DNA of 32,000 nt from contig CP178758.1 of the NCBI GenBank assembly GCA_047651235.1, positions 1,560,001 through 1,592,000 of the forward strand, read 5' to 3'. This document shows, piece by piece, positions 9,505 through 25,238 of this stretch. The notes below the pieces were generated by a model, which was not told where the DNA came from, did not search any database, and worked only from the letters and a program-made list of their open reading frames with translations. Position 1 is the first letter of the stretch. Each line of letters starts with the position of its first letter. The position numbers and the translations under genes were made by a program. The DNA comes from Candidatus Electrothrix yaqonensis. Its GTDB lineage: Bacteria; Desulfobacterota; Desulfobulbia; Desulfobulbales; Desulfobulbaceae.

Positions 9505-9931
9505 CTTCTCTCGTCCAACCATTGATTATCAGGCAGCCTTCCCTGATAACAGCTGATATTGACAATCTCAGGAGTATTCCCGTAATAATCCGTTATCAGG
9601 CAGGGCCGTTTTTCAAAAAAACATAACCACGCTGAATCTGAAAAGTAAATAAAAAAACGGCCGTCGAGAGGATAAAAGTACCCCGCCGGTATCACACAAT
9701 TTTCACGGAGTGCGCACTGACGGGGGCCGGAGAGGGGGCTTACAGGGGGGAATCCTGATTACCTACTCAAACTACCAGTTCCCCTGAACACAAAACCACG
9801 CATTCGTGACATACAACTGCATGCATTTGATCGGATCGAAACCATGCATTTCGTCAGTCGGACATATTGATAAATCCCCCGTCCTACACTGCACGACAGG
9901 TTCCTCGGAATACCCTGCCGTGCAGCCTGCT

Positions 9932-11899
9932 TCAGGTATACTCCCGCTTCAGCCGCTCCAGCAGATGACCGATATGAATATCCGGCGTATTCACCGGCCC
10001 CCAGTCCAGGGTGGTATGGGCCTGATTATCTTTGTCAATGGCGTTGCGCAGGCGTTGTTCCTGATCATACCACCACCTCTTGCTTGAGCCGTCCGGGCAG
10101 GAAGTGGCCTCAGTGTCGCCCCAGCGCAGTTCCGGGCAATGGTAGGGATCAAAGGAGAGCTTGAACAAGCGATCCATAATCTCCCCCAGCGTCAGGGTGA
10201 CCGTCCCTCCGCCGGAGTCGCTGTAGCGCACCTGAACACCTGATGCGTTTGCCTGCCAGAGAGCATCGTATTCCCGCACCAGCTCTTCCGCGCTGCCGCT
10301 GAACTCGTATGGATGATTGCCCGAAGCCACAGCGCTCACGCTCTGTTTGATCAGGTTGAACGTCTCCCGAATCTGGGCCTTGAGGCGGGCGTCCCTGCCC
10401 GGTGAGGAGTAGGATTCCCATTCACCCTCGGTGCCGTAGATATTATAGGGCAGGCTGGACGGATGGGCCTTTTGGTGAATGCCCTGTGCGACCGCTGCCT
10501 GCACGGATTCCACCCGCTCCTGCAGGGCTTGGTCCAAGGCGGCCAGCTGCTGCCTGATCTCTCTGACCGGATCGATTCTGCCGCTGCCCGTGGTCAGCAT
10601 CCGCTTGACCCATTGATGATAATTGAGGTCAACCCCGTCAACCCGGTAGCTGTCCTGGCATTGACTTTTACCGGAATCGAAAAACCGGGAGTTCGCATTG
10701 GAAGTCAGGACAAAGCTGCCGCTGCTGCTCACCTTCTGCTCCCGCCAGAGCCGGAAGCCTCCTCCCTGTTTGCAATAGCCCCGTGCGAAATGCGACCCGA
10801 ACCGTTTGCCGGTCAGGCTGTTGTCCGGGTGGGCATCCACGAACAAGACTGTACCGTCGTCCTCCACCTTGGAAACCACCAGCAGATGGCCGTTGGCATC
10901 GTAGTAGACCGTGCCCGGCACAATGCTGTCGCGATTCACTTGGCAGAGGTAGGTATCGGTCTTTTCCGTGGTCCAGAAAAAACGGAAAAAGCCGCTGTGT
11001 ACACTGTTGGAAATCGCTCTGGCCATTCTGGCAAAGCTGGAATAACTAAGAAAGGAACGGCGTCCTCCCGGCTTGTTGTTATTCGTATATCTGCCGCCGG
11101 AAATACTTGAATTGAAAGAAAAAGGTAGTCTTTTCTTGTAGCTAAAATAGGCACGCAGCAGATAGGGCAGGTCGGCGCAGTCGCAGTAGATGGAATTATT
11201 GCGGTCTTCCTCTGAATACAGGCTGTTCCCGGCTGGATTGCGCAGGCAGGCGGCCAGCGAGCCTTTTCTGTCGGCAAAGAGCTGTTCCACCCAGCGGGAA
11301 TACTCGGCTTCGTAGCGGTCGCTCCACTGATGCCGGGCTGTCCAGGCTGCACCTGCGCCGCCGACATTGATCTCCCCGCCCGGTTCAACAGGATCTTCAG
11401 ACCCTCCGCCGGGATTTGCTGCTGCCGCAGTGAGTTCCCGCCATGTTCTGCCGCCCACATCAATTCTGCCGTCCGGGCGGGACAGGAATCCCTGCTGAAA
11501 ATTCTGGATCGCCTGAATCAGCTCCTCTGAAACCTGATCGCTGACCGCCAGCGGGCTGGGCAATATTTTATTGAACAGGTCGTAGACGATGCGCACATCG
11601 CGGGGACGATTCTGCCCGCCCGAATCGCCCACGGAACCGCTCAGTTCACTTTCCGAGGCATCCGTCGCCGCAATGAGTTCCCGCCACGTTCTGCCGCCCA
11701 CATCAATTCTGCCGTCAGGCCGGGACAGAAAGGCCGCCTGAAAATCCCGGATCGCCGCAATCAGTTGTTCTGAAACCTGATCGCTGATTGGCAGCGGCGT
11801 CGGTAAAATTTTGTTGAACAGAGTATACACGGTACGCACATCTTCAGGACGATTCTGTCCTCCTGAATCACCCACTGAACCACTGATAGAAGCTGGCAT
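9932..11899 (-). CDS. Two N-terminal peptidoglycan-binding-like modules plus a papain/NlpC-P60-like putative cysteine peptidase domain and a long C-terminal region of unknown function; no signal peptide
   Basis: 655 aa. Two 81-aa repeats read SGSVGDSGGQNRPxDVRxVYxLFNKILPxPLxxSDQVSEELIxAIxxFQxxFLSRPDGRIDVGGRTWRELxAA. These resemble PG_binding_1 (DV..V..L...L......T..AI..FQ......DG.V...T...L). Downstream lie a Cys motif (IYCDCADLPYLLRAYF) and His motifs (YYDANGHLLVVSKV, VLFVDAHPDNS) in the order expected for an NlpC/P60-type Cys-His-His/Asp fold. Confidence 0.6.
   Translation of the reverse strand: MPASISGSVGDSGGQNRPEDVRTVYTLFNKILPTPLPISDQVSEQLIAAIRDFQAAFLSRPDGRIDVGGRTWRELIAATDASESELSGSVGDSGGQNRPRDVRIVYDLFNKILPSPLAVSDQVSEELIQAIQNFQQGFLSRPDGRIDVGGRTWRELTAAAANPGGGSEDPVEPGGEINVGGAGAAWTARHQWSDRYEAEYSRWVEQLFADRKGSLAACLRNPAGNSLYSEEDRNNSIYCDCADLPYLLRAYFSYKKRLPFSFNSSISGGRYTNNNKPGGRRSFLSYSSFARMARAISNSVHSGFFRFFWTTEKTDTYLCQVNRDSIVPGTVYYDANGHLLVVSKVEDDGTVLFVDAHPDNSLTGKRFGSHFARGYCKQGGGFRLWREQKVSSSGSFVLTSNANSRFFDSGKSQCQDSYRVDGVDLNYHQWVKRMLTTGSGRIDPVREIRQQLAALDQALQERVESVQAAVAQGIHQKAHPSSLPYNIYGTEGEWESYSSPGRDARLKAQIRETFNLIKQSVSAVASGNHPYEFSGSAEELVREYDALWQANASGVQVRYSDSGGGTVTLTLGEIMDRLFKLSFDPYHCPELRWGDTEATSCPDGSSKRWWYDQEQRLRNAIDKDNQAHTTLDWGPVNTPDIHIGHLLERLKREYT
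11420..11887 (-). repeat. Intragenic tandem duplication (2 x 243 nt) encoding the PG-binding-like module; paralogous to 12997..13449
   Basis: The SGSVG motif recurs at aa 6 and aa 87. The 42-nt core ccacgttctgccgcccacatcaattctgccgtcaggccggga at 11684-11725 is identical to 13249-13290. Near-identical copies occur around 11441-11480 and 13010-13050. Confidence 0.85.
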
Positions 11900-12399: not shown

Positions 12400-13461
12400 T
12401 TAGGGTCGGGCAAAAGCAAACCCCCATCTTTTGAGATACTCAATAAAATTATCAAGATCTTCAGCCGTATCTTTGAGTACGTGCATGAGCACGTTGAACT
12501 CGCTCTGGTGCTGCTTTCGTTGAAACTGCCGCTGAATCATGGCCCGTTTGCCCGGACCGATGCCTTTGGGAGATTTCCAGTCTTCGGTGTCAATGTCCCA
12601 GTTCTGAATGGCAAGGGAAAGTTCCTTTGCCACAGCGGCAAGCTCACGGTCATAAGGGGGCCAGCCGCCTGCACCGTAGGGCGGGCGAATCCTGGTCGGC
12701 GTGACTCCGGCAGCCCTTTTGATGCTCTTCTGGGTTTTCTCCAGCTCCTTCTGCACAAAACTCCTGCTGCCTTTGGCCAGATTCGGATGGGTGTAGGAAT
12801 GATTCTGCACCGCGTGTCCTTTGTCGGCAATTTCTTTCACCGCTGCCGGATAGCTGTCCACTTCCCGGCCAAGAACGTAAAATTCTGCCTTGATGCCGTG
12901 ATGGTCCAAGGTGTCCAGAATGGAATGCAGGGCACCTGTCGGGGCCGGACCATCGTCAAAGGAGAGCAGCACCGATTTGCCGGTTCCTCCGGCCGGAGTT
13001 GTGAGCTGTCTCCACGTTCTGCCGCCCACGTCAATCCTGCCGTCAGGCCGGGACATAAACATCTTCTGCAGGTCGCGGATCGCCTGAATCAGCTCGTCGG
13101 AGCACTGGTCGCTCACTGCCAGCGGTCGTGACAAGGTTTTGTTGAACAGCGCATAGATAATACGCACATCCCGCGCTTGATTCTGTCCGCCTTCACCCAC
13201 AGAACCGGTGATTTCTTCCGGCTTTTCCACCGCTGCAGTCAGCTCGCGCCACGTTCTGCCGCCCACATCAATTCTGCCGTCAGGCCGGGAGAGAAAGCCT
13301 TCCTGGAAGTCCCTGATCGCCCGAATAAGTTCTGTTGAACATACATCGCTTACTTCCAAAGGGGCCGGAAGGATTTTGTTGAACAGGGCGTAAACTGTCC
13401 GTACATCATCGGCACGGTTCTGGCCGCCCTGACCTACTGAACCACTGAGAGAAATCGACAT
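12400..13461 (-). CDS. Two N-terminal PG-binding-like modules plus a CE4 (NodB-homology) polysaccharide/peptidoglycan deacetylase; no signal peptide
   Basis: 353 aa. It has the same duplicated N-terminal module as the 9932..11899 product. All five CE4 motifs are present: SFDDGP (TFDDG), HSYTH (H-S/T-x-x-H), RPPYG (RxPY), DTEDW (DxxDW) and VLMHVL (LxH). Confidence 0.85.
   Translation of the reverse strand: MSISLSGSVGQGGQNRADDVRTVYALFNKILPAPLEVSDVCSTELIRAIRDFQEGFLSRPDGRIDVGGRTWRELTAAVEKPEEITGSVGEGGQNQARDVRIIYALFNKTLSRPLAVSDQCSDELIQAIRDLQKMFMSRPDGRIDVGGRTWRQLTTPAGGTGKSVLLSFDDGPAPTGALHSILDTLDHHGIKAEFYVLGREVDSYPAAVKEIADKGHAVQNHSYTHPNLAKGSRSFVQKELEKTQKSIKRAAGVTPTRIRPPYGAGGWPPYDRELAAVAKELSLAIQNWDIDTEDWKSPKGIGPGKRAMIQRQFQRKQHQSEFNVLMHVLKDTAEDLDNFIEYLKRWGFAFARP
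12997..13449 (-). repeat. Intragenic tandem duplication encoding the PG-binding-like module; paralogous to 11420..11887
   Basis: The GSVG motif recurs at aa 7 and aa 86. The DNA core is shared with the neighbouring gene, as described for 11420..11887. Confidence 0.85.
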
Positions 13462-13855: not shown

Positions 13856-14377
13856 TTATTTCTGCTCAATCTGCTTTTCCTCCTCTGCCCCGATCCCGAC
13901 CAGTTGTTTGATATCAACAAAGTTCATTTCATCAAGAACTGCAGGGTTGGACGTGTTCCATACTTTAATGCCGATTTTCTTGAGAGAAACGATCTTGAAT
14001 GCCGGAACAGTCTCCTTCAATGCCTTCAGTTTCTCTTCATCAGCTTCGACTGTAAGCCACAGGGCATATTCATTGTCAGCCTTTGTCTCAATTTTCAAAT
14101 AAGCCTGTTTCAGGATCAACTTGTATGTCTTAAGAAAATCGTTACCCTTCTCGTCCTTCATCTCAGGTAAGGTTATTTCTCCACCGGCAAGCGCCTTAAT
14201 ATCCTTCTGTAAGTCTGCCAGTGAGATTGGCCGGGCATTTTCTCCGGCGTTCATCTGTTTTACAACAAAAACGGTGTTGTCACCGACAGTCTGATAGGCT
14301 CCCTGCAGCACTGCACCCAGAAATTCTACTTCTGCGCCAAGCTGTACATTTGTTTTTTTTGCGTTATCGTTACTCAT
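13856..14377 (-). CDS. Hypothetical 173-aa protein; last gene of the candidate conflict operon
   Basis: The ORF track gives 13856..14431. The ATG at 14377 (MSNDNAKK) is preceded by a strong RBS, GGAAGGGAGGAAGACC. I recognised no motif, TM helix or signal peptide. The composition is AT-richer than the surrounding DNA. Confidence 0.55.
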   Translation of the reverse strand: MSNDNAKKTNVQLGAEVEFLGAVLQGAYQTVGDNTVFVVKQMNAGENARPISLADLQKDIKALAGGEITLPEMKDEKGNDFLKTYKLILKQAYLKIETKADNEYALWLTVEADEEKLKALKETVPAFKIVSLKKIGIKVWNTSNPAVLDEMNFVDIKQLVGIGAEEEKQIEQK

Positions 14378-14455
14378 GGTCTTCCTCCCTTCCTGTCCGG
14401 TTGTATGCAATTCTACCTGCTTTAGTACCAATACGTTGACATTGAACGTATCATA

Positions 14456-16162
14456 CTACAATTTCATAATAAAAAACAGCGCATAATACGGCGGCCTGTT
14501 TTCATGGGGCCTGCCAGCTCCTGCGGGCCTGCATTCTGCCGTATGCGCATGTTCTCCGGTCTCAGATGTTGCCGATGAACAAGTCTGATCGCGGTTATCC
14601 TGCTGCTGATTTTTCAGCGGACAGTCATCACCTCCTCCCCCCAAAAAACTCCGGTAATGCCTGACCAGCTCGGTGCTGTGCCGATGGCTGCCGTCTTTGC
14701 TGACTGTTATTTCATGCCTGTGCTGCGGCATATTGTCTTCTGTCAGAGCGACCGCCTCTTCCCCTCCTGTTGCCTGAACAGGATATGCTCCTCCGGCTCC
14801 GACAATGAAGCGATCCCGTAAATCAGGGGTTCCGTTGCGTCCGTTGCACAACGCCCAGCCCGGCGGGATGGCATCGGCAGCGCCGGACCACATAATAATG
14901 CCTCCTTTGGGCATAATCGGGCCTTTATCATCCTCTATTCCCCTGGTAACTTTTACATTACCGACAACATGCAGTGCCGCCTCCGGTTCATCCGTCCGGA
15001 TCCCTACTCTTTTGTCCCGCATCAGCAGCGGACTTTTCATGATGTTGCAGATAAACCGGCCGTCCCAGTAGCCGGGGATATTCTGGTACTGCAGGTATAA
15101 GTTCGCCCGTCCGGTTTTCAGCGAGGTTGTTATGTGCGTCAGGTAAAAGTCTATATGTTCTCCCGGTTCCAGGACTTTTCTGTTTTGGAAAGAAGCCGTC
15201 CATTTGGGCTTATCGCCCATGTCATCTTTTTCAATCTCATAATCGCTGTGTTCAATCTCATAGTCGCTGACATCTGTCGGGTCAATGACGTTCTCCGTGT
15301 CTTTATCGCCTAATGTCTTGTAGTAGCCTTTGGCATCTGTCAGCTCAATGGCTTTTACTTTATCTTTATTGGCCAGCGCCCATGCTTCCGCAGAATCTCC
15401 CTCTTCCTTGATATCAAACCAGAGAGCAAACCTGGAGGTCGGGGCGGAGTTGCTTTCTCCGTTGAGAATAATATCTTTGTTGTTCAGGGTGTTGGTAACG
15501 CGCAGGATAAGTTCGTTCTCTGTTTTTCCGTCGTTCAGTATGGTATTGGAACCCACAAAGCCGACGTGCAGGGGGAGCTGCCGTGCCCCTTTTCGGTACT
15601 GGATATTCAGCGTTTTTTCTCTGGCCTCCTGGCAGATGCTCAGGTTCCTGCATTTGAACAGCACCCGCGTTTTCCGGTTGCCGGTCCCTTCCCGTGCAGA
15701 CATGTTGGGCAGGGTGATGTGCAGCTCTTCGCCCGGCTCGATGACCTCTTTCTCTTTTTCTTTATGGGTTGCAAGCACATACAGAGAAACCGTGTCGCCG
15801 TCCTGTTCCGCATCCAGTTTGATATTCCAGCGGGCTTTGCCTTTCTGATCAAGGCGTAACTGATTTGCATCCCCGATAATGCGGTCTTTGGCTGCATCTC
15901 TGATTTTGTCCGCCCGTTTTTCTGCAAGCAGGGTGCCCTTTCTGAAAACAATCTCAAAATGATGGTGTTCTTTGTCGGCCCATTGATTTTTGAGGTCAAA
16001 TTGCTTCAGCGTAACCGGTTTTTGGGAATTATTTCTCACCGAAAAGCAGACCGCTGTGTCCACAGGATTGTCGGTAATATACAGCACACTGTTGTGGTCC
16101 TGATCATACAGCCTGAAATCAAGGGGGAACTGCTCTGTAAATGTATCAGCAGTGCTGCTCAT
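14456..16162 (-). CDS. Phage tail-collar (tail-fibre-like) domain protein with an N-terminal beta-rich region
   Basis: 568 aa. The C-terminus reads GGIIMWSGAADAIPPGWALCNGRNGTPDLRDRFIVGAG...MPQHRHEI...GSHRH...GEHAH...ENRPPYYALFFIMKL. This matches the tail-collar pattern of G.I..W......P.GW..C.G, His-rich inserts and N.PPY.al.fi.K. It is preceded by VGIRTDEPEAALHVVGNVKV, a motif common just before tail-fibre tip domains. The RBS AAAGGAGA lies upstream of the ATG at 16162. Confidence 0.75.
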   Translation of the reverse strand: MSSTADTFTEQFPLDFRLYDQDHNSVLYITDNPVDTAVCFSVRNNSQKPVTLKQFDLKNQWADKEHHHFEIVFRKGTLLAEKRADKIRDAAKDRIIGDANQLRLDQKGKARWNIKLDAEQDGDTVSLYVLATHKEKEKEVIEPGEELHITLPNMSAREGTGNRKTRVLFKCRNLSICQEAREKTLNIQYRKGARQLPLHVGFVGSNTILNDGKTENELILRVTNTLNNKDIILNGESNSAPTSRFALWFDIKEEGDSAEAWALANKDKVKAIELTDAKGYYKTLGDKDTENVIDPTDVSDYEIEHSDYEIEKDDMGDKPKWTASFQNRKVLEPGEHIDFYLTHITTSLKTGRANLYLQYQNIPGYWDGRFICNIMKSPLLMRDKRVGIRTDEPEAALHVVGNVKVTRGIEDDKGPIMPKGGIIMWSGAADAIPPGWALCNGRNGTPDLRDRFIVGAGGAYPVQATGGEEAVALTEDNMPQHRHEITVSKDGSHRHSTELVRHYRSFLGGGGDDCPLKNQQQDNRDQTCSSATSETGEHAHTAECRPAGAGRPHENRPPYYALFFIMKL

Positions 16163-16226
16163 GATTGATTCTCCTTTGTATTTTTGCAGTCCTGTCTTGA
16201 GATGATGCTGGCATTTTCAGCAGAGT

Positions 16227-19200
16227 TCAACGGGCTGCCGCTGTCTCCGCATCCTCTGCAAATTTCTCCGTCAGCCGCTTAATGGTCCATTCCAGGCGTT
16301 CCTCGATGGCCCCTTCCTGGCCGGGTTTGAGCTTATCGCGGATATCTTTCAGCGTGGCAATGTCTTCCTTTGTGCCGGTGTATTCCAGGTTCCACAGGGC
16401 AAGGTCGATGGCTTGGAAGGCCGCGTAGGGGAAGGGGGATGGGAGATCGTCGGGGTCGAAGGCCTGATGGGCCTGGATGATTTCGCCGATGAGAGAGGCA
16501 TTGGCTGCTCCGTCGGCTATTCTGCTTGCTAAGGCTCGGATGGCCCCTTGACGGACTTGATAGAGGGGATGGTCGAGCAGCTCAATGCCTTCCTCTGCCG
16601 GAGCAATACGGGCCAAGGCATTGCCCAGCATGTATTCCCAGTGCTCTTTTTTCCAGGTTTTATCCTGCCGGTCTACTTCAACTTCGCTGTCTGAAGCTGT
16701 TTTTTCCGGCTCTTCGATGGCCCGCTCTTTGCGCCAGTCCGCTTTTTCCTGCTCTAATTCCTCCAGCTTATTTTCCATGTAATCGTAAGCAGGAGCATAT
16801 GCCATTTGGCTAAGCCAGTGTAGAATGCGGTAGCGCAGTGAGTTGTCTTTCTCCAACTTTACGAGTAACTCATATAGTACTTCTGCATACTTCTCACGAT
16901 CAGTCGCCCCAAAGGCATTAAGAGCACGCAAACGCAAGGATTTCTCTTGCGCCGAATCAAAAAGAACAGCTTGAAGCTTTGCCCGAATTTTTCTCTCCAT
17001 CTCAGAAAAAGTTGCCGCTCTTTCCTGCCCTCTGAAAGCAAGGAAGCGGCCAAGTGCGGTAATGGTCGATTCGCGTAATCTCAAATCGGCATGGTCGCTC
17101 AAAACCAGCAGGTTCGGAACTTGTTCCTGTACCAGTTCAGGGCGATATTCACTGATAGTACCGATAGATTCAACGGCAACCTTGATCACTTTCTTATTAG
17201 AATCCTGCAAAAGCCTTTTGAGGAATTTGACTGATTGCTCTGTAAAAATGTATCCAAGTACAGTCGCAGCTTCTTTCCGTTGTTCGCCTGTTAAAGAAAT
17301 TTTTTCCTGCGCTGTCTTAAACTGCTCTTCCTGCCATTTCTGAAGTTCAGGAGAGGATTGATTCATGCTGAGCAGGGCCTTGGCTGCCACATCCCGCAGG
17401 TCCGGTTTTTTTAAATACCTACGGAGCATTGGCGCAGCTGCATCTGCCTTCACTCTGCCCAGGGCGTACGCCGCAGAACTCCGCACGGACGCATCCTCAT
17501 CCTCCAGGAGCTTGAGCAGCGCCGGCGCAACCGAGATGTCGCCCACTCTGCCCAGGGCTTCCGCCGCAGACCTCCGCACGTACTCAGACTCATCCTCCAG
17601 GAGCTTGAGCAGCGCCGGCGCAACCGAGATGTCGCCCACTCTGCCCAGGGCTTCCGCCGCAGAACTCCGCACGGACGCATCCGCAGACTCCAGGAGCTTG
17701 AGCAGCGCAGATTTGTCGCCCAATAATTGCGCAATGGCCAAGGCAGCCTCTGCGTTCTGCCGGCCCTCAGCTATCTGCAGCAGGAGCTCCGTACTCCTCG
17801 CTGTTCTTACAGATGCAAGCTGGGCAGGAAGGGGGCTGATCAGATCTTTCTCACCTGTTTTCAGGAGAGTTTCGACCAGTTTGTCTTCCTTGTCATCCTT
17901 GTTCTTATACATCCTTCTGTACAGCCCGTTTTCAGCATAACGCGGCAGGCGCTCCAGAATCGGCAGCCTGCCCACCAGATTTGCCCGGGTGTTTTCCCTG
18001 TCCTCAACAATCCTGCGGTCAACACGTTTGTCCGCCTCAAGATCCTGGCGGCGAAAAACACCTTCATAGCAGAATCCACGTACACTGAACAAATCCAACC
18101 CGTTCTCTGTTCCCTGATGGACTTCGATGCGGTCAAAAACACCTTCTTTTGAAGCAAGATAGCGGCCATAATAATTCGCCCGCCAGTCATTTGCCGCAAA
18201 GAGCATGCCGCAAGCAATCAGCACGGCAACTCCTCCCAGCGTCAGCCGCTTCACCCGCTGCCGCTGCTTGAACTCCCGGTTCCACTTATCAATGGATTCA
18301 GAAAAAATGTCGTGATACAGCTCGTACCAGAACTCTTCGCCCCGTTTCTGCCGCCGCAGGATGAACTCCTCCTGCAGTTTTTCCAGCACCGGCTTCAGCT
18401 CGTCTTCCTGAAATCTGGTCAGATCAGCCAGCCGTGCCAAAGAATGCGCAATCTTGGTGGCCCGTTGCCCGATCAGATGATCAAAGGCGGCTGAGGCGAC
18501 TTTCTGCTCCTTCTCGTTGAATGCGCTGATCTTGCGGAGGAAATAACTGTTGAGAATACCTGCGGTCCGGCCTGCCCGCTCATACGCCGCATGCGTGATC
18601 TGTTTCTGCTTGGCCTCATCATCCCGATGGTGCTGCCACAGCTCCTGGCAGACAATCTGCAGATGCGGCGGCTCCACCAGCAGAGGCAGCTCTTTCAGTT
18701 TGAGCAGTTCCTGCACCCCGAACTGCCGTTCCTGCTCCCGCTTAGCCAGATCATCCAGTACCTGATCCAGCAATGCCTCCTGCGTTCCCGTCTGCGGCGC
18801 AAAACTGTAGCAGGTCTTTTCCAGCGGTTTTTCAATAGCCAGCCGGGCCTGCTCGCGGGTCAGTTTTTCCAACCTGAAATAATTGTCAAACACGCCGGGC
18901 AGGAATTCCTTAAACGCATTGAGTTCCAGGGCAAAATCTTCCCGCATGGAAAAAACAAAGGAGACAGGCAGGCTGCGGTCAAGAATGGCCGCGCTCAGTT
19001 CCTCGATAAAGGGCCGGAACTCCGGCTTGAAACGATGGTAGTTGAACAACTCCTCAAACTGATCAAGCAAAAGGACAAGCTGGCCGCTGCTGAAAAGCGT
19101 GCAGGACCGGAGTATACTTTTGAGATAAACCTCCTTATACGGCTCGCCATAATGCTCACTCACCGACTGTTTAAAGGCCTGTGGAGAAGCCGACCAGACA

Positions 19201-19460
19201 TTATAATAGATCAGCTCGATATTGCTGTCAGTCCGCAGCGCAGGCATGATGCCCGCCTGAAGCAGGGAGCTTTTGCCCACACCGCTGGCCGCCAGCAACA
19301 GAGTCAGCCGGTTGGCCCGGATTTTATCCAGGAGAATGCTGCTTTCGCGGCTGCGGCCGAAGAAACGATCCTTTTCCTGTTCCGTAAAAGGCCGCAGCCC
19401 AATATAGGGCTGAAAACCGGAACCGGCATGATGCCGGGATGCTGTCTGAGAAGAACTCAT
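16227..19460 (-). CDS. STAND-class P-loop NTPase (nSTAND-like) with a central hydrophobic helix and C-terminal HEAT (PBS-lyase-type) repeats
   Basis: 1077 aa. The N-terminus PYIGLRPFTEQEKDRFFGRSRESSILLDKIRANRLTLLLAASGVGKSSLLQAG contains the PYxGLxxF...FFGR lead-in and Walker A. Walker B is LVLLLDQFEELF. A hydrophobic stretch, LTLGGVAVLIACGMLFAA, follows KQRQRVKR. The repeats are of the form VRSSAAEALGRVGDISVAPALLKLLEDE. The start overlaps the upstream stop in an ATGA arrangement. Confidence 0.85.
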   Translation of the reverse strand: MSSSQTASRHHAGSGFQPYIGLRPFTEQEKDRFFGRSRESSILLDKIRANRLTLLLAASGVGKSSLLQAGIMPALRTDSNIELIYYNVWSASPQAFKQSVSEHYGEPYKEVYLKSILRSCTLFSSGQLVLLLDQFEELFNYHRFKPEFRPFIEELSAAILDRSLPVSFVFSMREDFALELNAFKEFLPGVFDNYFRLEKLTREQARLAIEKPLEKTCYSFAPQTGTQEALLDQVLDDLAKREQERQFGVQELLKLKELPLLVEPPHLQIVCQELWQHHRDDEAKQKQITHAAYERAGRTAGILNSYFLRKISAFNEKEQKVASAAFDHLIGQRATKIAHSLARLADLTRFQEDELKPVLEKLQEEFILRRQKRGEEFWYELYHDIFSESIDKWNREFKQRQRVKRLTLGGVAVLIACGMLFAANDWRANYYGRYLASKEGVFDRIEVHQGTENGLDLFSVRGFCYEGVFRRQDLEADKRVDRRIVEDRENTRANLVGRLPILERLPRYAENGLYRRMYKNKDDKEDKLVETLLKTGEKDLISPLPAQLASVRTARSTELLLQIAEGRQNAEAALAIAQLLGDKSALLKLLESADASVRSSAAEALGRVGDISVAPALLKLLEDESEYVRRSAAEALGRVGDISVAPALLKLLEDEDASVRSSAAYALGRVKADAAAPMLRRYLKKPDLRDVAAKALLSMNQSSPELQKWQEEQFKTAQEKISLTGEQRKEAATVLGYIFTEQSVKFLKRLLQDSNKKVIKVAVESIGTISEYRPELVQEQVPNLLVLSDHADLRLRESTITALGRFLAFRGQERAATFSEMERKIRAKLQAVLFDSAQEKSLRLRALNAFGATDREKYAEVLYELLVKLEKDNSLRYRILHWLSQMAYAPAYDYMENKLEELEQEKADWRKERAIEEPEKTASDSEVEVDRQDKTWKKEHWEYMLGNALARIAPAEEGIELLDHPLYQVRQGAIRALASRIADGAANASLIGEIIQAHQAFDPDDLPSPFPYAAFQAIDLALWNLEYTGTKEDIATLKDIRDKLKPGQEGAIEERLEWTIKRLTEKFAEDAETAAAR
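17440..17720 (-). repeat. Near-identical 93-bp tandem repeats (at least 3 units) encoding 31-aa HEAT repeats
   Basis: The string cctccaggagcttgagcagcgccggcgcaaccgagatgtcgcccactctgcccagggcttccgccgcaga occurs at 17501-17570 and again from 17594, giving a period of 93 bp. The string ctgcccaggg..ccgcagaactccgcacggacgcatcc recurs 186 bp apart, at 17455 and 17641. Confidence 0.85.
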
Positions 19461-21154
19461 AAGGCCGCCTCCAATTCCCGGACAAAATCCGCAAGGGCAA
19501 GGTCATGGACCTTCACGCCCTTGTATTGCCAGAAGTCGTGATTAAAAGGAGGCGCATTTTCCTGCACAGCCAAGGAGGAGGCATCCTTATGCTGCTGTTC
19601 TTTGAGAAATCCGACCAGCAGCCGCTCCTCCCAGCTCTGGGGATGATGGCCTATGAACCAGAGCGAACAGAGAGAGCTTTTCATCCTGCTGCTGATATAG
19701 TTGGGAAACTGCTGCTCCATAACCTTGTTGAAGGCGAAATAATCCCGTTCAGCCAGCAGTAGATGTTCCTGTCCGCTGACAATGCCGCCGCGCAGCCGAT
19801 AAATAACAATATGCCCATTTTCCAGCAGTTCCTGCGACGACACGTCATCCGGGGTGCAGGAAGTTTCCCTCCCGTCTGAAAAAATCAGCAGGCATTTTCC
19901 CTCCTCCAGGTTCGGATAGATTTCCACAAAATCGCACCGCTTGGCCCGAAGGCTCTCTTGGAGCAGATTGTCATAGGCGGCGGAAATAACGATGAACGGC
20001 TTTTCCAGCCCGACCAGCAGATCATACAGGGCGACAGAGGAATTTTCTTTATCCAGGAGTCGGCGGAGTTCATTGACCAAATCAGTCCGGTTGCCAGCGA
20101 TCAGCTTCTGCTCGCACAGCTCGGACAGAGGGCCGAGGAATTCTTCTTCACAGAGATATTTCTTGATCTCAGCTGTTGAAGGAGCAGATGCGCCAAAAAG
20201 ATGCGATATTTCCTGGCCAAGACAAAGAATGACCTCGCCCCGCGCAAGCTGTGTGGCCAGCCGAGGATAATCAGGCCCGGCAGCTGTGTTTTTGACGTTT
20301 TTGTCCAAGGTTTCTAAAAAACTGACTAAAGCCTGCCAGTCATCAGGCTCATCATACGCATTTCCTATTTTTTCCAGCAGCTCTTCATCACCGGAATCGA
20401 TTCCTTGCTCCTCCATCTGTTTGAACTCATTGCGGGCCACATCGCACAGGCTGTCATCAAGATCAAAATCCATGAGCAGACCCCGCAGCTGTTTTTTCGC
20501 CCGCGCAACTTGGTCAGCAGAAGATGCAGCAGGACGCGGCGCAGCAAAGGAAGGAATCAGCTGCTCAATCCCCGGGTAAATGGTTTTCAGGTTGGCAACC
20601 GCGACCGCATGGCCCCGCTGGCCTGCATCCACTTTGTGACTGACCACCGCAATCAGCCTTCCTTGTTCATCGCAGAGCGGCGAGCCGCTGTAGCCGCCCT
20701 GCAGCCGGGAAAAATCATCATCTTCAACATGCAGATCCCATGCCTCAACGCGGCCGCTGCCCGGGGATTCAAAGGTGATGGATTTACCCAGCCTGCCCTC
20801 AATATGCCGGAGGACATAGTTGTTCTTTGCTCCGGAAAAAGGGCCGTACCCGCAGATATGAAACCCCTTTTCCGCTTTTCCCTTTGCAGTGCGGTTCAGC
20901 AGCGGAGGCGGGTCTTCGCAGGGAATGCGCAGCAGGGCCAGATCAATTCCGTCAGCTGCACCCTTGGCCACGACTATCGCTTCCGCTTCATGCCCGCTCA
21001 CCCTGATTCTGTCGTCGAGCTGGTCCACCACATGGGCGCAGGTGAGCAGGTAAAGCTGCCCGTCTTGATAAGCCACAGCAAAACCGGTGCCGAAGGCCTT
21101 TTTGCCGCCCTCGGCACTGGTCAGGAGAAAGACTACCTCTTTTTCAATTGCCAT
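19457..21154 (-). CDS. Trypsin-like serine protease fused to a C-terminal SIR2-like (SIR2_2-type) domain
   Basis: 565 aa. The N-terminal catalytic triad context is LLTCAHVV (His41), GIDLALLRI (Asp71) and GGYSGSPL (Ser156). The C-terminal 265 aa or so follow the SIR2_2 layout: ILCLGQEISHLFG (glycine-rich loop position), FIVISAAYDNLLQESL (TTNYD position), IYRLRGGI...LLLAERDYFAF (K-x-HG...T..DY position) and SLWFIGHHPQSWEERLL (lFiGyS..D position). Confidence 0.75.
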   Translation of the reverse strand: MAIEKEVVFLLTSAEGGKKAFGTGFAVAYQDGQLYLLTCAHVVDQLDDRIRVSGHEAEAIVVAKGAADGIDLALLRIPCEDPPPLLNRTAKGKAEKGFHICGYGPFSGAKNNYVLRHIEGRLGKSITFESPGSGRVEAWDLHVEDDDFSRLQGGYSGSPLCDEQGRLIAVVSHKVDAGQRGHAVAVANLKTIYPGIEQLIPSFAAPRPAASSADQVARAKKQLRGLLMDFDLDDSLCDVARNEFKQMEEQGIDSGDEELLEKIGNAYDEPDDWQALVSFLETLDKNVKNTAAGPDYPRLATQLARGEVILCLGQEISHLFGASAPSTAEIKKYLCEEEFLGPLSELCEQKLIAGNRTDLVNELRRLLDKENSSVALYDLLVGLEKPFIVISAAYDNLLQESLRAKRCDFVEIYPNLEEGKCLLIFSDGRETSCTPDDVSSQELLENGHIVIYRLRGGIVSGQEHLLLAERDYFAFNKVMEQQFPNYISSRMKSSLCSLWFIGHHPQSWEERLLVGFLKEQQHKDASSLAVQENAPPFNHDFWQYKGVKVHDLALADFVRELEAAL

Positions 21155-21163
21155 AATGAGAAA

Positions 21164-21571
21164 TCAGCTCCTGTTCTCCTGATGCAGCAAAACGGGAAGA
21201 ACTTTGCTGTACTGCTGAAAATCTTGGTCCCGTGTATAAATGGCGGCCTGCAGACGGAACGCACAGGAACAGATCAGAAAATCAATGTGCGATCCCTGTA
21301 TCCCTCTGCGCCTGCAGAGGTTGTGGTACTGTGCTGCTCGGATATAGTCCTCATCCAGGACAGGTTCATTGTCAAAGCAGCTCAGGTGCTTCCGCAGCCG
21401 CTCAAACCTGCTCTCTTCCGAATACCCGGAAAGAATCTCCTGACGGATCGGTCCAGGCAGAAGAACCCGCTGCTCTTCAATCAGCCGGGCCAGCTCCTGG
21501 CAGACATGTTCATCCGGCTCGGTCCGCCGTAATGCCAAAGACCAGATCACTGTATCAATAACAACTTTCAC
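21164..21571 (-). CDS. vapC: PIN-domain ribonuclease toxin, VapC-like
   Basis: 135 aa. The start MKVVIDTVIW carries the PIN N-terminal acidic residue. The protein has the typical length, and its GTG start overlaps the antitoxin stop in a GTGA arrangement. It ends 9 bp upstream of the trypsin-SIR2 start. Confidence 0.75.
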   Translation of the reverse strand: MKVVIDTVIWSLALRRTEPDEHVCQELARLIEEQRVLLPGPIRQEILSGYSEESRFERLRKHLSCFDNEPVLDEDYIRAAQYHNLCRRRGIQGSHIDFLICSCAFRLQAAIYTRDQDFQQYSKVLPVLLHQENRS

Positions 21572-21765
21572 CGGGAGCGCGCCTTTTTATAGTCATAATC
21601 CGGGTCAGGGTCCATTGTTCCGAAAAGCTTCGTGATCTCAAGCTGTCTGCGCCGGTTCACAAACTCTTTCAACGCAAGATTAACCGTATCCTTTTTTGTC
21701 CGCAGCCTCGCGAGTTCACGTGCCTCTTCAAGCAGCCGCATGTCTATTGCAAGATTTGTAGCCAT
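21568..21765 (-). CDS. vapB: Type II antitoxin, VapB-like (small RHH/DUF2191-like)
   Basis: 65 aa. The sequence MATNLAIDMRLLEEARELARLRTKKDTVNLALKEFVNRRRQLEI is typical of short VapB-type antitoxins. The gene has a 4-bp overlap with the PIN gene. Confidence 0.7.
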   Translation of the reverse strand: MATNLAIDMRLLEEARELARLRTKKDTVNLALKEFVNRRRQLEITKLFGTMDPDPDYDYKKARSR

Positions 21766-21867
21766 ATAGATCCTCTCTGAAATTCGACATCAAAGTATTT
21801 TACACACACTCTTACACGTTATCATGCGTGAACGCTGACTGTCAAACAAAGGGGTGCAGAAAAAAAA

Positions 21868-22173
21868 TCATTCCTCCTCCGCCTTAGGTGAGATGGACAG
21901 CTTGATCTTGAGGTTGGCATTGCCTTTGGCCTTGGCCAGAAAAACAGACCCCTCAGCGGAAAATCCGAGCTGGAGTTCCACCTCCACGTTGTCAATACAC
22001 ATCTCCTTGTTCAGTTCGTCCCACACCGAAACCACAGGCCGACACGCTTTGAGCAGAATCGGACGTACCGTGTCAATGGCTGTGTCCACATGATCTGCCA
22101 CGCCGCCGGAAATCTGATTTACCTGATCCTGGGGCACCTCAACCTCAACCTCAACCAACAGGCCGTCTTCCAT
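21868..22173 (-). CDS. Small Trypco-like (trypsin-co-occurring, CU044_2847-type) protein
   Basis: 101 aa. The layout is LLVEVEVEV..., a central helix region, then VEVELQLGFSAEGSVFLAKAKGNANLKIKLSISP. From memory, this matches small proteins found next to trypsin/STAND conflict genes (evEFGvkls.e.g..iak...ean.kv.l.w). The assignment is by recollection only. Confidence 0.5.
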   Translation of the reverse strand: MEDGLLVEVEVEVPQDQVNQISGGVADHVDTAIDTVRPILLKACRPVVSVWDELNKEMCIDNVEVELQLGFSAEGSVFLAKAKGNANLKIKLSISPKAEEE

Positions 22174-22345: not shown

Positions 22346-22489
22346 TCAGAGATATTTCTGATTTTTCCGGCTGTACTCCGCAGCCCGGCCGATAATGAAC
22401 TCCTTCCAGGAGGGATCATCAAAGGCATGGGCAATGGTGAAGATATCCTTGTCGCCCCGGCCAGACATATTGATAATAATAGCCTGGTC
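22346..22489 (-). pseudogene. trpB: 3'-terminal fragment of tryptophan synthase beta chain (trpB remnant)
   Basis: The NMSGRGDKDIFT block is essentially the invariant NLSGRGDKDIFT motif near the TrpB C-terminus. No other part of trpB is present upstream, because the lepA stop lies at 22704. Confidence 0.6.
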
Positions 22490-22648
22490 GCAGGACATGG
22501 CCGGAGGCGGAATCACACGAACACCTGCGGCCTCAAGTTCCGCCTCTCCCTGCTTGATCGCTGCGAAAAGCGAACGAAGATCATAGTTATGCTGCGCAGC
22601 AAGCGCATCTTTGACAGCCCGTACCTCGGCAATAATCTCATCACTCAT
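22346..22648 (-). CDS. Chimeric small ORF: an about 50-aa helical N-terminal part fused in frame to a trpB 3' remnant
   Basis: The RBS GGAGGA lies 7 nt upstream of the ATG at 22648 (MSDEIIAEVRAVKDALAAQHNYDLRSLFAAIKQGEAELEAAGVRVIPPP). The remainder, DQAIIINMSGRGDKDIFTIAHAF, is the conserved C-terminal block of tryptophan synthase beta. Confidence 0.5.
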   Translation of the reverse strand: MSDEIIAEVRAVKDALAAQHNYDLRSLFAAIKQGEAELEAAGVRVIPPPAMSCDQAIIINMSGRGDKDIFTIAHAFDDPSWKEFIIGRAAEYSRKNQKYL

Positions 22649-22703
22649 CGTCCATTCCTCCAAGGAGTTCTTCAGGTGTGCAGATAATCGGCAGGAACCG
22701 ACC

Positions 22704-24655: not shown

Positions 24656-25012
24656 TTATTTCAGCTGAAGAGGTTGTGCATTCAGCTCCTCTATATTGAG
24701 AAGTTGCCGATCATTGGTCAGTAGGGTCGCATTGTTGACAAGAGCGGTGGCACATATAATGGCGTCAGGTGTTTTGAGTTTACGTTTCCTCTTCAACGCG
24801 ATAGTCTCCTGCTTGACGTTTTCATCCAGCGGATGAATCAGAATATCATGAAAGAATCTTTTCAGCAGCTCTTCATGCTCACCGGAGAGGCCCGGAAATG
24901 AGAGCAGTTCAATTTCAGTAATGATTGAGATGCAGTATTCATCTTCGGCAAGCGGAGCTGCCAGCTGATTATTGTGCAGATAGATAACGGCATTGGTGTC
25001 CAGAATCAGCAT
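24656..25012 (-). CDS. PIN-domain toxin, VapC-like
   Basis: The ATG at 25012 gives MLILDTNAVIYLHNN...ITEIELLS...TPDAIICATAL...LLTNDRQL, with the PIN acidic residues in the expected contexts. The start lies 1 nt after the upstream antitoxin stop. The track ORF start at 25084 is probably too long. Confidence 0.75.
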   Translation of the reverse strand: MLILDTNAVIYLHNNQLAAPLAEDEYCISIITEIELLSFPGLSGEHEELLKRFFHDILIHPLDENVKQETIALKRKRKLKTPDAIICATALVNNATLLTNDRQLLNIEELNAQPLQLK

Positions 25013-25013
25013 G

Positions 25014-25238
25014 TCACCATTCCTCATCCCGGATTTTTCTCTGATATTCCACCCCATCGACAGGCCATTCAATCTTACCTGCATACTGCATGAGATCAGC
25101 GGCGGGAGGTTTATTTTTTTCGTCTTCTATAATTTTTATTTTATTTCCCGGCAACCCTCTCAGCATAGATACCACGATCTCATAGAGACTGTTATCAATT
25201 TGTAAGTAGAGTGTTTTCATGGTTTCCTTTTTGTTCAA
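25014..25238 (-). CDS. Putative antitoxin partner of the PIN toxin
   Basis: The 74-aa ORF lies immediately upstream of, and abuts, the PIN gene. Its C-terminal tail AGKIEWPVDGVEYQRKIRDEEW resembles the toxin-binding tails of small antitoxins. The start may be MKTLYLQ at 25220. Confidence 0.5.
   Translation of the reverse strand: MNKKETMKTLYLQIDNSLYEIVVSMLRGLPGNKIKIIEDEKNKPPAADLMQYAGKIEWPVDGVEYQRKIRDEEW

Follow-up and report, generated by a model that had tools for sequence, protein, structure and literature searches.

An apparent eight-gene conflict operon of Candidatus Electrothrix yaqonensis reduces to a predicted three-gene Trypco1, trypsin/pseudo-SIR2 and nSTAND1-HEAT module

Introduction

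Which genes of a crowded cluster make up one conflict system, and how might that system work? The question arises from a 32,000-nucleotide stretch of the genome of Candidatus Electrothrix yaqonensis (GenBank assembly GCA_047651235.1, contig CP178758.1, forward-strand positions 1,560,001 to 1,592,000), referred to here as the window, whose own numbering is used for all of its coordinates. Between positions 13856 and 22173 of the window a run of closely spaced genes encodes a Trypco1 protein, a VapB/VapC toxin-antitoxin pair, a trypsin-like protease joined to a SIR2-like domain, a STAND NTPase with HEAT repeats, a tail-collar protein and a small protein of 173 amino acids (aa). An earlier note on this DNA had taken the whole run for a defence operon of eight genes, although the list that it gives names only seven. 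Comparison with related loci indicates that the functional unit is smaller and consists of three genes, which encode Trypco1, the trypsin/SIR2-like protein and a predicted transmembrane nSTAND1-HEAT protein.

Kaur et al. (2020; PMC7159879) gave the names Trypco1 and Trypco2 to genes that co-occur with trypsin-like peptidases, and a later paper introduced nSTAND1 as a clade of conflict-system NTPases (Kaur et al., 2021; PMC8195603). A preprint that renames Trypco1/2 "Pepco" reports tests of one pair, SsPepco-SsAvs4 of Streptomyces subrutilus, in which Pepco pre-assembles as a 9-10-mer β-barrel, the adjacent protease cuts the C-terminal tail of Pepco after a conserved Ile (Ile97), and the truncated protein is lethal to E. 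coli, as expected of a membrane pore; the same work names "transmembrane STAND ATPases" as one of the kinds of sensor to which Pepco-associated proteases are fused (bioRxiv 10.1101/2025.11.14.688446).

Results

A three-gene unit conserved across genomes

The gene positions, strand and spacings given in the earlier note were all reproduced, and its domain calls were borne out by Pfam, NCBIfam and PHROG profile searches of each protein. The window genes of the cluster and their protein features, described below, lie on the minus strand. The first gene of the conserved unit encodes Trypco1 (21868-22173, 101 aa), which matches PF19493 with E = 1.6e-10, above the cut-off, and the NCBIfam CU044_2847 family with 2.6e-9. 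The second (19457-21154) encodes a 565-aa protein that matches Trypsin_2 (3.9e-12) and SIR2_2 (2.8e-7), both above cut-off, while the third (16227-19460) encodes a STAND protein of 1077 aa with matches to nSTAND1 (PF20703, 3.1e-48) and HEAT_2 (6e-33). The stop of the protease gene and the start of the STAND gene overlap by 4 bp in the sequence ATGA. Each of the three genes has a guanine-plus-cytosine (GC) content of 0.539, the window mean being 0.525.

Loci were fetched with alignment A1, which comprises 19 full-length homologues of this 565-aa protein, and one genome was taken per species. Twelve of the 14 related loci (L001-L012; Electrothrix, Electronema, other Desulfobulbaceae, Methylococcales, Methylomonas and Chromatiaceae) carry a match to the trypsin-SIR2 protein that extends past its protease domain, and the remaining two came from an exact-protein look-up, one carrying a relative 80% identical (L057) and the other belonging to E. 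communis (L058). When all loci were searched with the window proteins (tblastn), the order Trypco1, trypsin-SIR2, STAND was found to be conserved in the 14 related loci wherever the contig allows. Among the 27 best-matching genome loci of the alignment-based scan, 26 have Trypco1 directly upstream of the protease gene, as do all three exact-look-up loci; in most cable-bacterial loci the two genes are a few nucleotides apart or overlap. Every locus with enough sequence has an nSTAND1-HEAT homologue as the next gene downstream of the protease. The overlap of protease stop and STAND start seen in the window recurs in L057 and L058. On either side the three-gene cassette is bordered by housekeeping genes that differ in each genome, which argues that the cassette is mobile as a unit of three.

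The test that the earlier note had set for its own proposal, co-occurrence of the genes outside this genome, therefore divides the cluster. Co-occurrence is found for the three genes above and fails for the other four of the seven, the tail-collar and 173-aa genes being absent from all 14 other loci and an intact copy of vapBC from every other locus. The trypsin-SIR2 family itself is concentrated in filamentous cable bacteria and in other multicellular or aggregating taxa.

Sequence identity along the cassette is uneven in two of the comparisons. Between the E. gigas locus (L001, 9615-12384) and the window (16227-22173), identity is 92% for Trypco1 but only 58% for the trypsin-SIR2 protein and 71% for the STAND N-terminus; at L005 the protease protein is 48% identical to that of the window and the STAND N-terminus 74%. 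This mosaic pattern suggests recombination between cassettes.

An intact protease joined to a conserved pseudo-SIR2 domain

The trypsin-like serine protease domain occupies residues 5-196 of the 565-aa protein (20567-21142). Its catalytic triad (H41/D71/S156), of which the earlier note had singled out Ser156, is invariant in the 19 homologues, and profile searches of the PDB match it to HtrA and MarP proteases at 4e-12. The full-length alignment returned only proteases in that search, the SIR2 part being matched when searched alone; in Pfam the SIR2_2 match reaches 31.1 bits, its cut-off being 24.5. An AlphaFold2 model of the whole protein, built on A1 (mean predicted local distance difference test, pLDDT, 84.7), resolves into a chymotrypsin-fold domain, a four-helix linker (residues ~212-291) and an α/β domain. 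Foldseek pairs the N-terminal domain with Rv3671c (MarP), HtrA and Deg proteases and the C-terminal domain with the SIR2 domains of KomC, DSR2 and ThsA, at target-normalised template-modelling scores (TM-scores) of 0.62-0.70 (0.69 for KomC, 8zsf).

While the fold is that of SIR2, the catalytic motifs of the C-terminal domain (19460-20269, residues ~296-565; PF13289) have been replaced. In the profile alignment to KomC (8zsf) the Asn motif TTNYD reads SAAYD, the His motif KFHGD, which holds the catalytic H146, reads RLRGG, and the loop GAGvS that binds nicotinamide adenine dinucleotide (NAD) reads LGQEl; in the PDB entry 9xvc this His of KomC has been mutated on purpose (H146N). These substitutions are properties of the family. 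All 19 sequences have an Arg (R455) at the position of the catalytic His, Ala, Cys or Gly and never Asn at position 393, and Glu or Asp at position 315, which corresponds to the second Gly of the GAG loop. The Asn and the His are essential in ThsA (N112/H152) and DSR2 (N133/H171). The domain has the fold of the defence NADases ThsA (Thoeris), DSR2 and KomC (Kongming) and matches Pfam SIR2_2, but catalytic Asn, catalytic His and GAG loop are all three substituted across this family, so that the domain is at most a scaffold derived from such enzymes. The earlier description of the domain as degenerate thus applies to all 19 members, and the domain was rejected as an active NADase on the same grounds. 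The NAD-targeting effector that the earlier note had envisaged is contradicted by these losses, and the effector identified in the published work is Trypco1 ("Pepco").

The SIR2-like domain nevertheless shows roughly the same degree of conservation as the protease domain, with E345, C347, E348, R356, D395, R455, E469, D471 and Y472 among its invariant residues. Conservation across the domain, with many invariant residues and with the catalytic motifs replaced, marks it as a conserved pseudo-enzyme and not a decaying one.

Related protease domains (P0027-P0058), which come mostly from cable bacteria where the source is named, carry other C-terminal partners, namely FGE-sulfatase, vWA, HEAT, TIR, nSTAND4 and prenyltransferase-like domains. 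In the FGE-sulfatase fusions the protease domain is 73-77% identical to that of the window. One such locus (L068, 5376-7404) is a two-gene unit of Trypco1 and a trypsin-FGE protein with no STAND gene, and another (L069, 5652-8793) is a two-gene unit of Trypco1 and a trypsin-nSTAND4 fusion whose protease domain is 49% identical. These paralogous Trypco1-trypsin modules of cable bacteria and their relatives point to domain shuffling within the lineage. To judge from this exchange of domains, the C-terminal end of the protease serves as a slot for sensing or coupling; where the slot holds the pseudo-SIR2, a separate STAND gene always comes next.

The STAND protein has no N-terminal adaptor domain, nSTAND1 beginning at residue 18, and no effector-associated adaptor domain is present at the locus. 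We infer that the pseudo-SIR2 most likely docks the protease onto a STAND oligomer or aids oligomerisation; the titles of the ThsA and KomC PDB entries describe helical filaments or higher oligomers for these active SIR2 relatives.

A predicted single-pass STAND sensor with a variable HEAT array

The nSTAND1 profile covers residues 18-388 of the STAND protein and includes the Walker A motif GVGKSS that had been noted before. The hydrophobic helix behind the earlier suggestion that this protein might span the membrane is also borne out. In a Kyte-Doolittle analysis (19-residue window, membrane threshold 1.6) the segment LTLGGVAVLIACGMLFAAN (residues 406-424, 18189-18245), preceded by the basic stretch KQRQRVKR, has a mean of 1.95 and is the sole STAND segment above the threshold. 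A hydrophobic helix immediately after the NTPase, with a K/R-rich N-terminal flank, is found in eight of eight homologues, including those of Methylococcales and Chromatiaceae. STAND is accordingly predicted from its sequence to be a single-pass protein with a cytoplasmic NTPase, and the positive-inside rule would place the HEAT region of ~650 aa outside the cytoplasm.

Conservation is distributed unequally along the protein. Relative to homologues from cable bacteria and Desulfobulbaceae, identity is 71-85% in the NTPase, 33-49% in the HEAT array and 53-66% in the C-terminal region. Three HEAT units (17451-17729) are tandem repeats of 93 nt (31 aa) each, 92% and 75% identical at the DNA level, and the protein of the window is ~330-370 aa shorter than its cable-bacterial homologues (1077 versus 1400-1450 aa), the difference falling within the HEAT repeat region. 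Tandem units and length difference together indicate recent and ongoing repeat expansion and contraction, and the divergence and turnover of the array would fit a rapidly changing specificity domain. The Avs models in PADLOC do not match this protein, whose only PADLOC matches are to HEAT-ARM_XIII, WGR_XIII, HEAT_CxxC_PD-DEXK and, weakly, mad8.

Trypco1 and its C-terminal tail

Three segments of Trypco1 have the alternating hydrophobic and charged residues of β-strands (LLVEVEVEV, VEVELQLGF and NLKIKLSI), and the last of these is followed by the short C-terminal tail SPKAEEE. A hydrophobic-x-P-K pattern is kept in nearly all copies of the Trypco1 alignment, position I94 being I, L, M or F, and in the homologues this position is followed by x-P-K and a tail of 3-10 residues.

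A toxin-antitoxin pair at the effector-protease junction

Between Trypco1 and the protease gene of the window lie 713 bp (21155-21867) that hold vapB (21568-21765, 65 aa; PF09957 at 1e-14, above the curated cut-off) and the PIN-domain toxin gene vapC (21164-21571, 135 aa; NCBIfam NF047959 at 2.2e-25 with 89.2 bits against a cut-off of 80, Pfam PIN at 5.7e-9). The two genes overlap by 4 bp, and 9 bp separate vapC from the protease gene, both as described earlier; the gap between Trypco1 and vapB is 102 bp, and a promoter-like site lies upstream of vapB at 21825-21797.

None of the 14 related loci contains vapB, and vapC has left a single trace in them, a 3' remnant made up of its last 24 codons (83% identical) at the corresponding junction in Electronema sp. 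TJ (L002, 323-394). The junction in that genome (L002, 261-406) is a spacer of 143 bp that runs into the protease start codon with the same sequence as in the window, and the remnant argues that the insertion is old or recurrent and was mostly deleted there. In E. gigas (L001, ~9909-10000) the spacer is a different one of ~90 bp with a terminator-like hairpin, and in one Methylococcaceae locus (L010, ~980-1115) it measures ~137 bp. The variety of spacers implies that this junction is prone to insertions and deletions. In the combination of a VapB antitoxin with a PIN-domain VapC, in the 4-bp gene overlap and in scores above curated cut-offs the pair resembles other VapBC type II systems, and only its location inside another conflict operon is unusual. 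On this comparison vapBC appears to be an autonomous type II toxin-antitoxin hitch-hiker that stands outside the mechanism of the module, and its earlier listing as a member of the system is not upheld.

Tail-collar and 173-residue neighbours

Downstream of the STAND gene, after gaps of 64 and 78 bp that match those reported before, follow the tail-collar gene (14456-16162, 568 aa) and a small gene of unknown function (13856-14377) whose product has 173 aa from an ATG or 191 aa from an upstream TTG. The earlier note had found no convincing terminator here, and we likewise found no convincing intrinsic terminator in the intergenic gaps and no strong promoter or intrinsic terminator in the short ones, so the two genes may be read through from the STAND transcript. 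Their GC content is 0.508 and 0.439, respectively.

The C-terminal tail-fibre/tail-collar domain of the 568-aa protein (residues 416-568) matches PHROG tail-fibre/tail-collar families at 4.5e-29 to 1e-26; Pfam Collar and Gp10_C are below their cut-offs, and PF07484 or PF21939 appears in the precomputed Pfam matches of many homologues. The family comprises 1010 homologues, often labelled "microcystin-dependent protein" or LamG-containing, and the nearest non-self relative shows 43% identity over 33% of the query. A structure model of poor quality (pLDDT 60.7) contains three β-sandwich domains and a poorly modelled trimer-type C-terminus. The Foldseek matches of this model are integrin legs and Gram-positive adhesins with TM-scores <0.3 and point to generic tandem β-sandwiches only. 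Full-length homologues occur in Cytophagales, Saprospiraceae and one metagenome contig, where they sit in a conserved cluster between a protein of 1488-1832 aa and a DUF6603 protein of 1303-1413 aa.

For the 173-aa protein a word-based homology search recovered only the protein itself, and exhaustive phmmer searching assembled a family of 31 proteins. A back-translation scan for this family gave no confirmed locus with alignment A6 and five loci with alignment A7, and a hidden Markov model of the family, run against all fetched loci, found no copy beside trypsin-SIR2 or tail-collar homologues. In three of the four metagenome loci with enough sequence the homologue is followed within ~200 bp by a protein of 1471-1753 aa. 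These large proteins form one homologous family. One member has a DUF6603 domain and shares, over that region, 35-39% identity with the DUF6603 proteins of Bacteroidota. The giant-protein neighbourhoods of the two families lie at L060 8001-13620, L061 8001-13969, L062 8001-13623, L063 6950-12120, L065 6971-13017 and L067 2076-7756; the window has no giant DUF6603-type gene, and DUF6603 has no mention in the literature searched. The tail-collar and 173-aa genes are placed outside the module because they are absent from the related loci, have a giant-protein context elsewhere and differ in GC content from the core. The tail-collar protein was considered as a decoy or sensor of the system and rejected. 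The two families suggest an undescribed cluster around giant DUF6603-type proteins, of which the window holds two small pieces.

Genomic setting

The earlier note had pictured the cluster as an acquired island of AT-richer DNA that lies next to lepA and beside a trpB scar. The lepA neighbour is secure (TIGR01393, E = 9e-290). The composition argument stands for the 173-aa gene, applies mildly to the tail-collar gene and fails for the three core genes, for which the GC profile gives no foreign signal. The trpB scar is weakly supported, through its last ~26-30 residues only: a trpB-like reading frame of 105 aa (22346-22663) matches the end of tryptophan synthase beta in its C-terminal part (IIINMSGRGDKDIFT). 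A truncated trpB between lepA and Trypco1 suggests a past rearrangement at the site. The tRNA scan was empty, which leaves no tRNA-linked integration site, and an Rfam scan of the whole window at gathering thresholds found nothing. A repeat search over 12-24 kb found no flanking direct repeats that would mark the ends of an island; it returned only the HEAT tandem units and the duplicated N-terminal module of a deacetylase gene. A single acquired island spanning the whole 8.3 kb was rejected.

Farther out, a second PIN-domain protein with a weak VapC-like match is encoded beyond lepA (24656-25084, 142 aa). On the other side the neighbours are a 655-aa protein of unknown function (9932-11899) and a 353-aa polysaccharide deacetylase (12400-13461), each of which starts with two copies of a common module of ~95 aa (repeat D1, 13001-13448). 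The module follows the pattern SGSVG..GGQNR..DVR.VY.LFNKILP.PL.VSD...GRIDVGGRTWRELTAA and has a weak likeness to a peptidoglycan-binding domain.

Discussion

The conserved order, the intact triad, the conserved helix, the variable HEAT array and the equal GC content of 0.539 support treating Trypco1, the trypsin/pseudo-SIR2 protein and STAND as one system. We consider it probable, with a fair measure of doubt, that this module is a protease-licensed cell-suicide system in which Trypco1 is the latent pore effector. STAND would be held in the inner membrane by its one helix, with the NTPase in the cytoplasm, and the variable HEAT array would sense a signal derived from an invader or from damage. 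Ligand binding would lead to NTP-dependent oligomerisation of STAND, as in other STAND/NLR proteins, and the oligomer would recruit and activate the protease through the pseudo-SIR2, acting as a docking or oligomerisation module whose NAD chemistry has been lost. The protease would then trim the tail of Trypco1, probably after I94 (...KLSI|SPKAEEE), and the trimmed protein would pass from a pre-assembled β-barrel to an active membrane pore, with death of the infected cell as the outcome. These steps are drawn by analogy, pore and cleavage having been shown for one Streptomyces Pepco-Avs4 pair.

Several points weigh against this account. PADLOC recognises the locus as no system. The membrane topology is a prediction from hydropathy and the positive-inside rule, the adaptor role of the pseudo-SIR2 is read from position and linkage, and the sensor is the shortened STAND described above. 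In the tested case, moreover, Pepco was paired with the cytosolic Avs4 and not with a separate transmembrane STAND (bioRxiv 10.1101/2025.11.14.688446). The equation of I94|S95 with the published Ile97 site is a proposal, the tail measuring 7 aa here versus ~20 aa there. Finally, the vapBC-bearing 713 bp between Trypco1 and the protease gene may alter stoichiometry or expression.

Placing the HEAT array in the periplasm leads to a more tentative elaboration, which we regard as doubtful though worth stating: STAND may be an outside-in receptor that signals to its cytoplasmic NTPase, with the dead SIR2 as the adaptor that fires protease and pore. Such a layout, if true, has no counterpart among the bacterial STAND/NLR systems described in the literature examined. 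Alternatively, the pseudo-SIR2 might still bind an NAD-derived or other nucleotide ligand as a second input. The same machinery might instead serve functions other than phage defence, such as programmed death, damage sensing or kin control in filaments, with the extracytoplasmic HEAT array sensing an envelope or periplasmic cue. We think this unlikely. It would suit a family centred on filamentous cable bacteria and other taxa that aggregate or are multicellular, a single-pass topology whose positive N-terminal flank is predicted to leave HEAT outside the cytoplasm, and the reported enrichment of the systems of Kaur et al. in multicellular prokaryotes (PMC7159879). All the Pepco, MBL and EACC1 protease modules that have been tested by experiment, however, respond to phage proteins, the variability and repeat turnover of HEAT fit an arms race, and the topology that puts HEAT outside is itself a prediction. 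It is unlikely, too, that the module is decaying in this genome into a non-functional relic, with Trypco1 uncoupled by vapBC and about a third of the STAND sensor lost. No reading frame is broken, both the catalytic triad and Walker A have been kept, the conserved C-terminal region of STAND is present with its 53-66% identity, and no terminator has been introduced. The insertion does occupy a junction at which the two genes of most cable-bacterial loci lie a few nucleotides apart or overlap, and the truncated trpB next door does indicate local rearrangement, but the length deficit relative to the 1400-1450 aa of the relatives lies inside a tandem-repeat array that naturally expands and contracts.

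Two further readings assign the parts differently. In one, the SIR2-like domain would be the effector, an NADase or other nucleotide enzyme released or activated by the protease, and Trypco1 its regulator or adaptor. SIR2 NADases are common among defence effectors, and the domain has a true defence-type SIR2 fold (KomC, DSR2, ThsA) and is conserved like the protease domain, with many invariant polar residues. This reading is nonetheless very unlikely, since 19 of 19 members have lost the catalytic His, the catalytic Asn and the second Gly of the GAG loop to other residues and Trypco/Pepco is experimentally sufficient as a toxic effector (bioRxiv 10.1101/2025.11.14.688446). The other unites the seven or eight genes in a single composite system, a new kind of defence, and we judge it highly improbable: the tail-collar and 173-aa genes are missing from 14 of 14 other loci, vapBC is represented elsewhere by one vapC remnant, relatives of the tail-collar and 173-aa genes adjoin giant DUF6603-type proteins, and the GC content of these two genes is 0.51 and 0.44 against 0.539 for the core. 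What the composite system has in its favour is a common strand and gaps of 64 and 78 bp with no convincing terminator or promoter, which make co-transcription possible.

The three-gene cell-suicide module that we favour is partly familiar. As the earlier note had recognised, the trypsin-like protease, Trypco and STAND ATPase with repeats are components of conflict systems of the type described by Kaur and Aravind. Its further statement that the combination belongs to no named system holds in that PADLOC names none, its domain-level matches for the protease domain being RT-Protease_XI and LmuA, but the logic of Pepco, protease and transmembrane STAND had already been described. The likeness to Pepco-protease-STAND modules lies in a Trypco gene directly upstream, in the related loci, of a trypsin-like protease with an intact triad, in a linked STAND ATPase with a repeat sensor, and in a tail that follows a conserved hydrophobic residue. 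In those modules, however, the protease is fused to the sensor, whereas here it is a separate polypeptide with a dead SIR2 and the STAND gene overlaps it. Relative to SsPepco-SsAvs4, the STAND clade is nSTAND1 instead of Avs4, the Trypco1 tail is ~7 aa instead of ~20 aa, effector and protease are split by vapBC, and the system of the window is known from sequence alone. With the systems of Kaur et al. (PMC7159879, PMC8195603) the module shares the combination of peptidase, NTPase and repeats and an enrichment in multicellular bacteria, cable bacteria being filamentous. Trypco was found there mainly in vWA-MoxR (VMAP) ternary systems (PMC7159879), whereas neither vWA, MoxR nor VMAP is present in the seven proteins or the other window genes scanned. 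SIR2 is absent from the main text of PMC7159879, in which the trypsin/pseudo-SIR2 fusion is thus not described. A literature search on SIR2 together with trypsin-like proteases, STAND and HEAT repeats found nothing, and one on cable-bacterial defence systems returned no paper that was on topic by its title and abstract.

What was known already, then, is the Pepco/Trypco1-protease-STAND logic, with one member tested. New are a pseudo-SIR2 kept across the family in the coupling slot, a separately encoded and conserved nSTAND1-HEAT partner with a predicted single membrane pass, the concentration of the family in cable bacteria, and a toxin-antitoxin insertion at the junction of effector and protease.

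For the annotation of islands the locus carries a warning, namely that toxin-antitoxin or tail-fibre-like genes beside defence operons can be hitch-hikers, which conservation of the neighbourhood separates from the system proper. An apparent operon of eight genes is reduced to a unit of three that can be cloned for heterologous study. Within it the fold of SIR2 NADases is kept family-wide as a non-catalytic part, which informs how separate proteases may be wired to STAND sensors that have no known adaptor domain. The conserved helix suggests that extracytoplasmic signals may be within reach of some bacterial NLR-like sensors. In cable bacteria the cells of a filament are described as having one continuous periplasm in common, and an outside-in receptor, if that is what STAND proves to be, would be of special interest in organisms with such a shared compartment.

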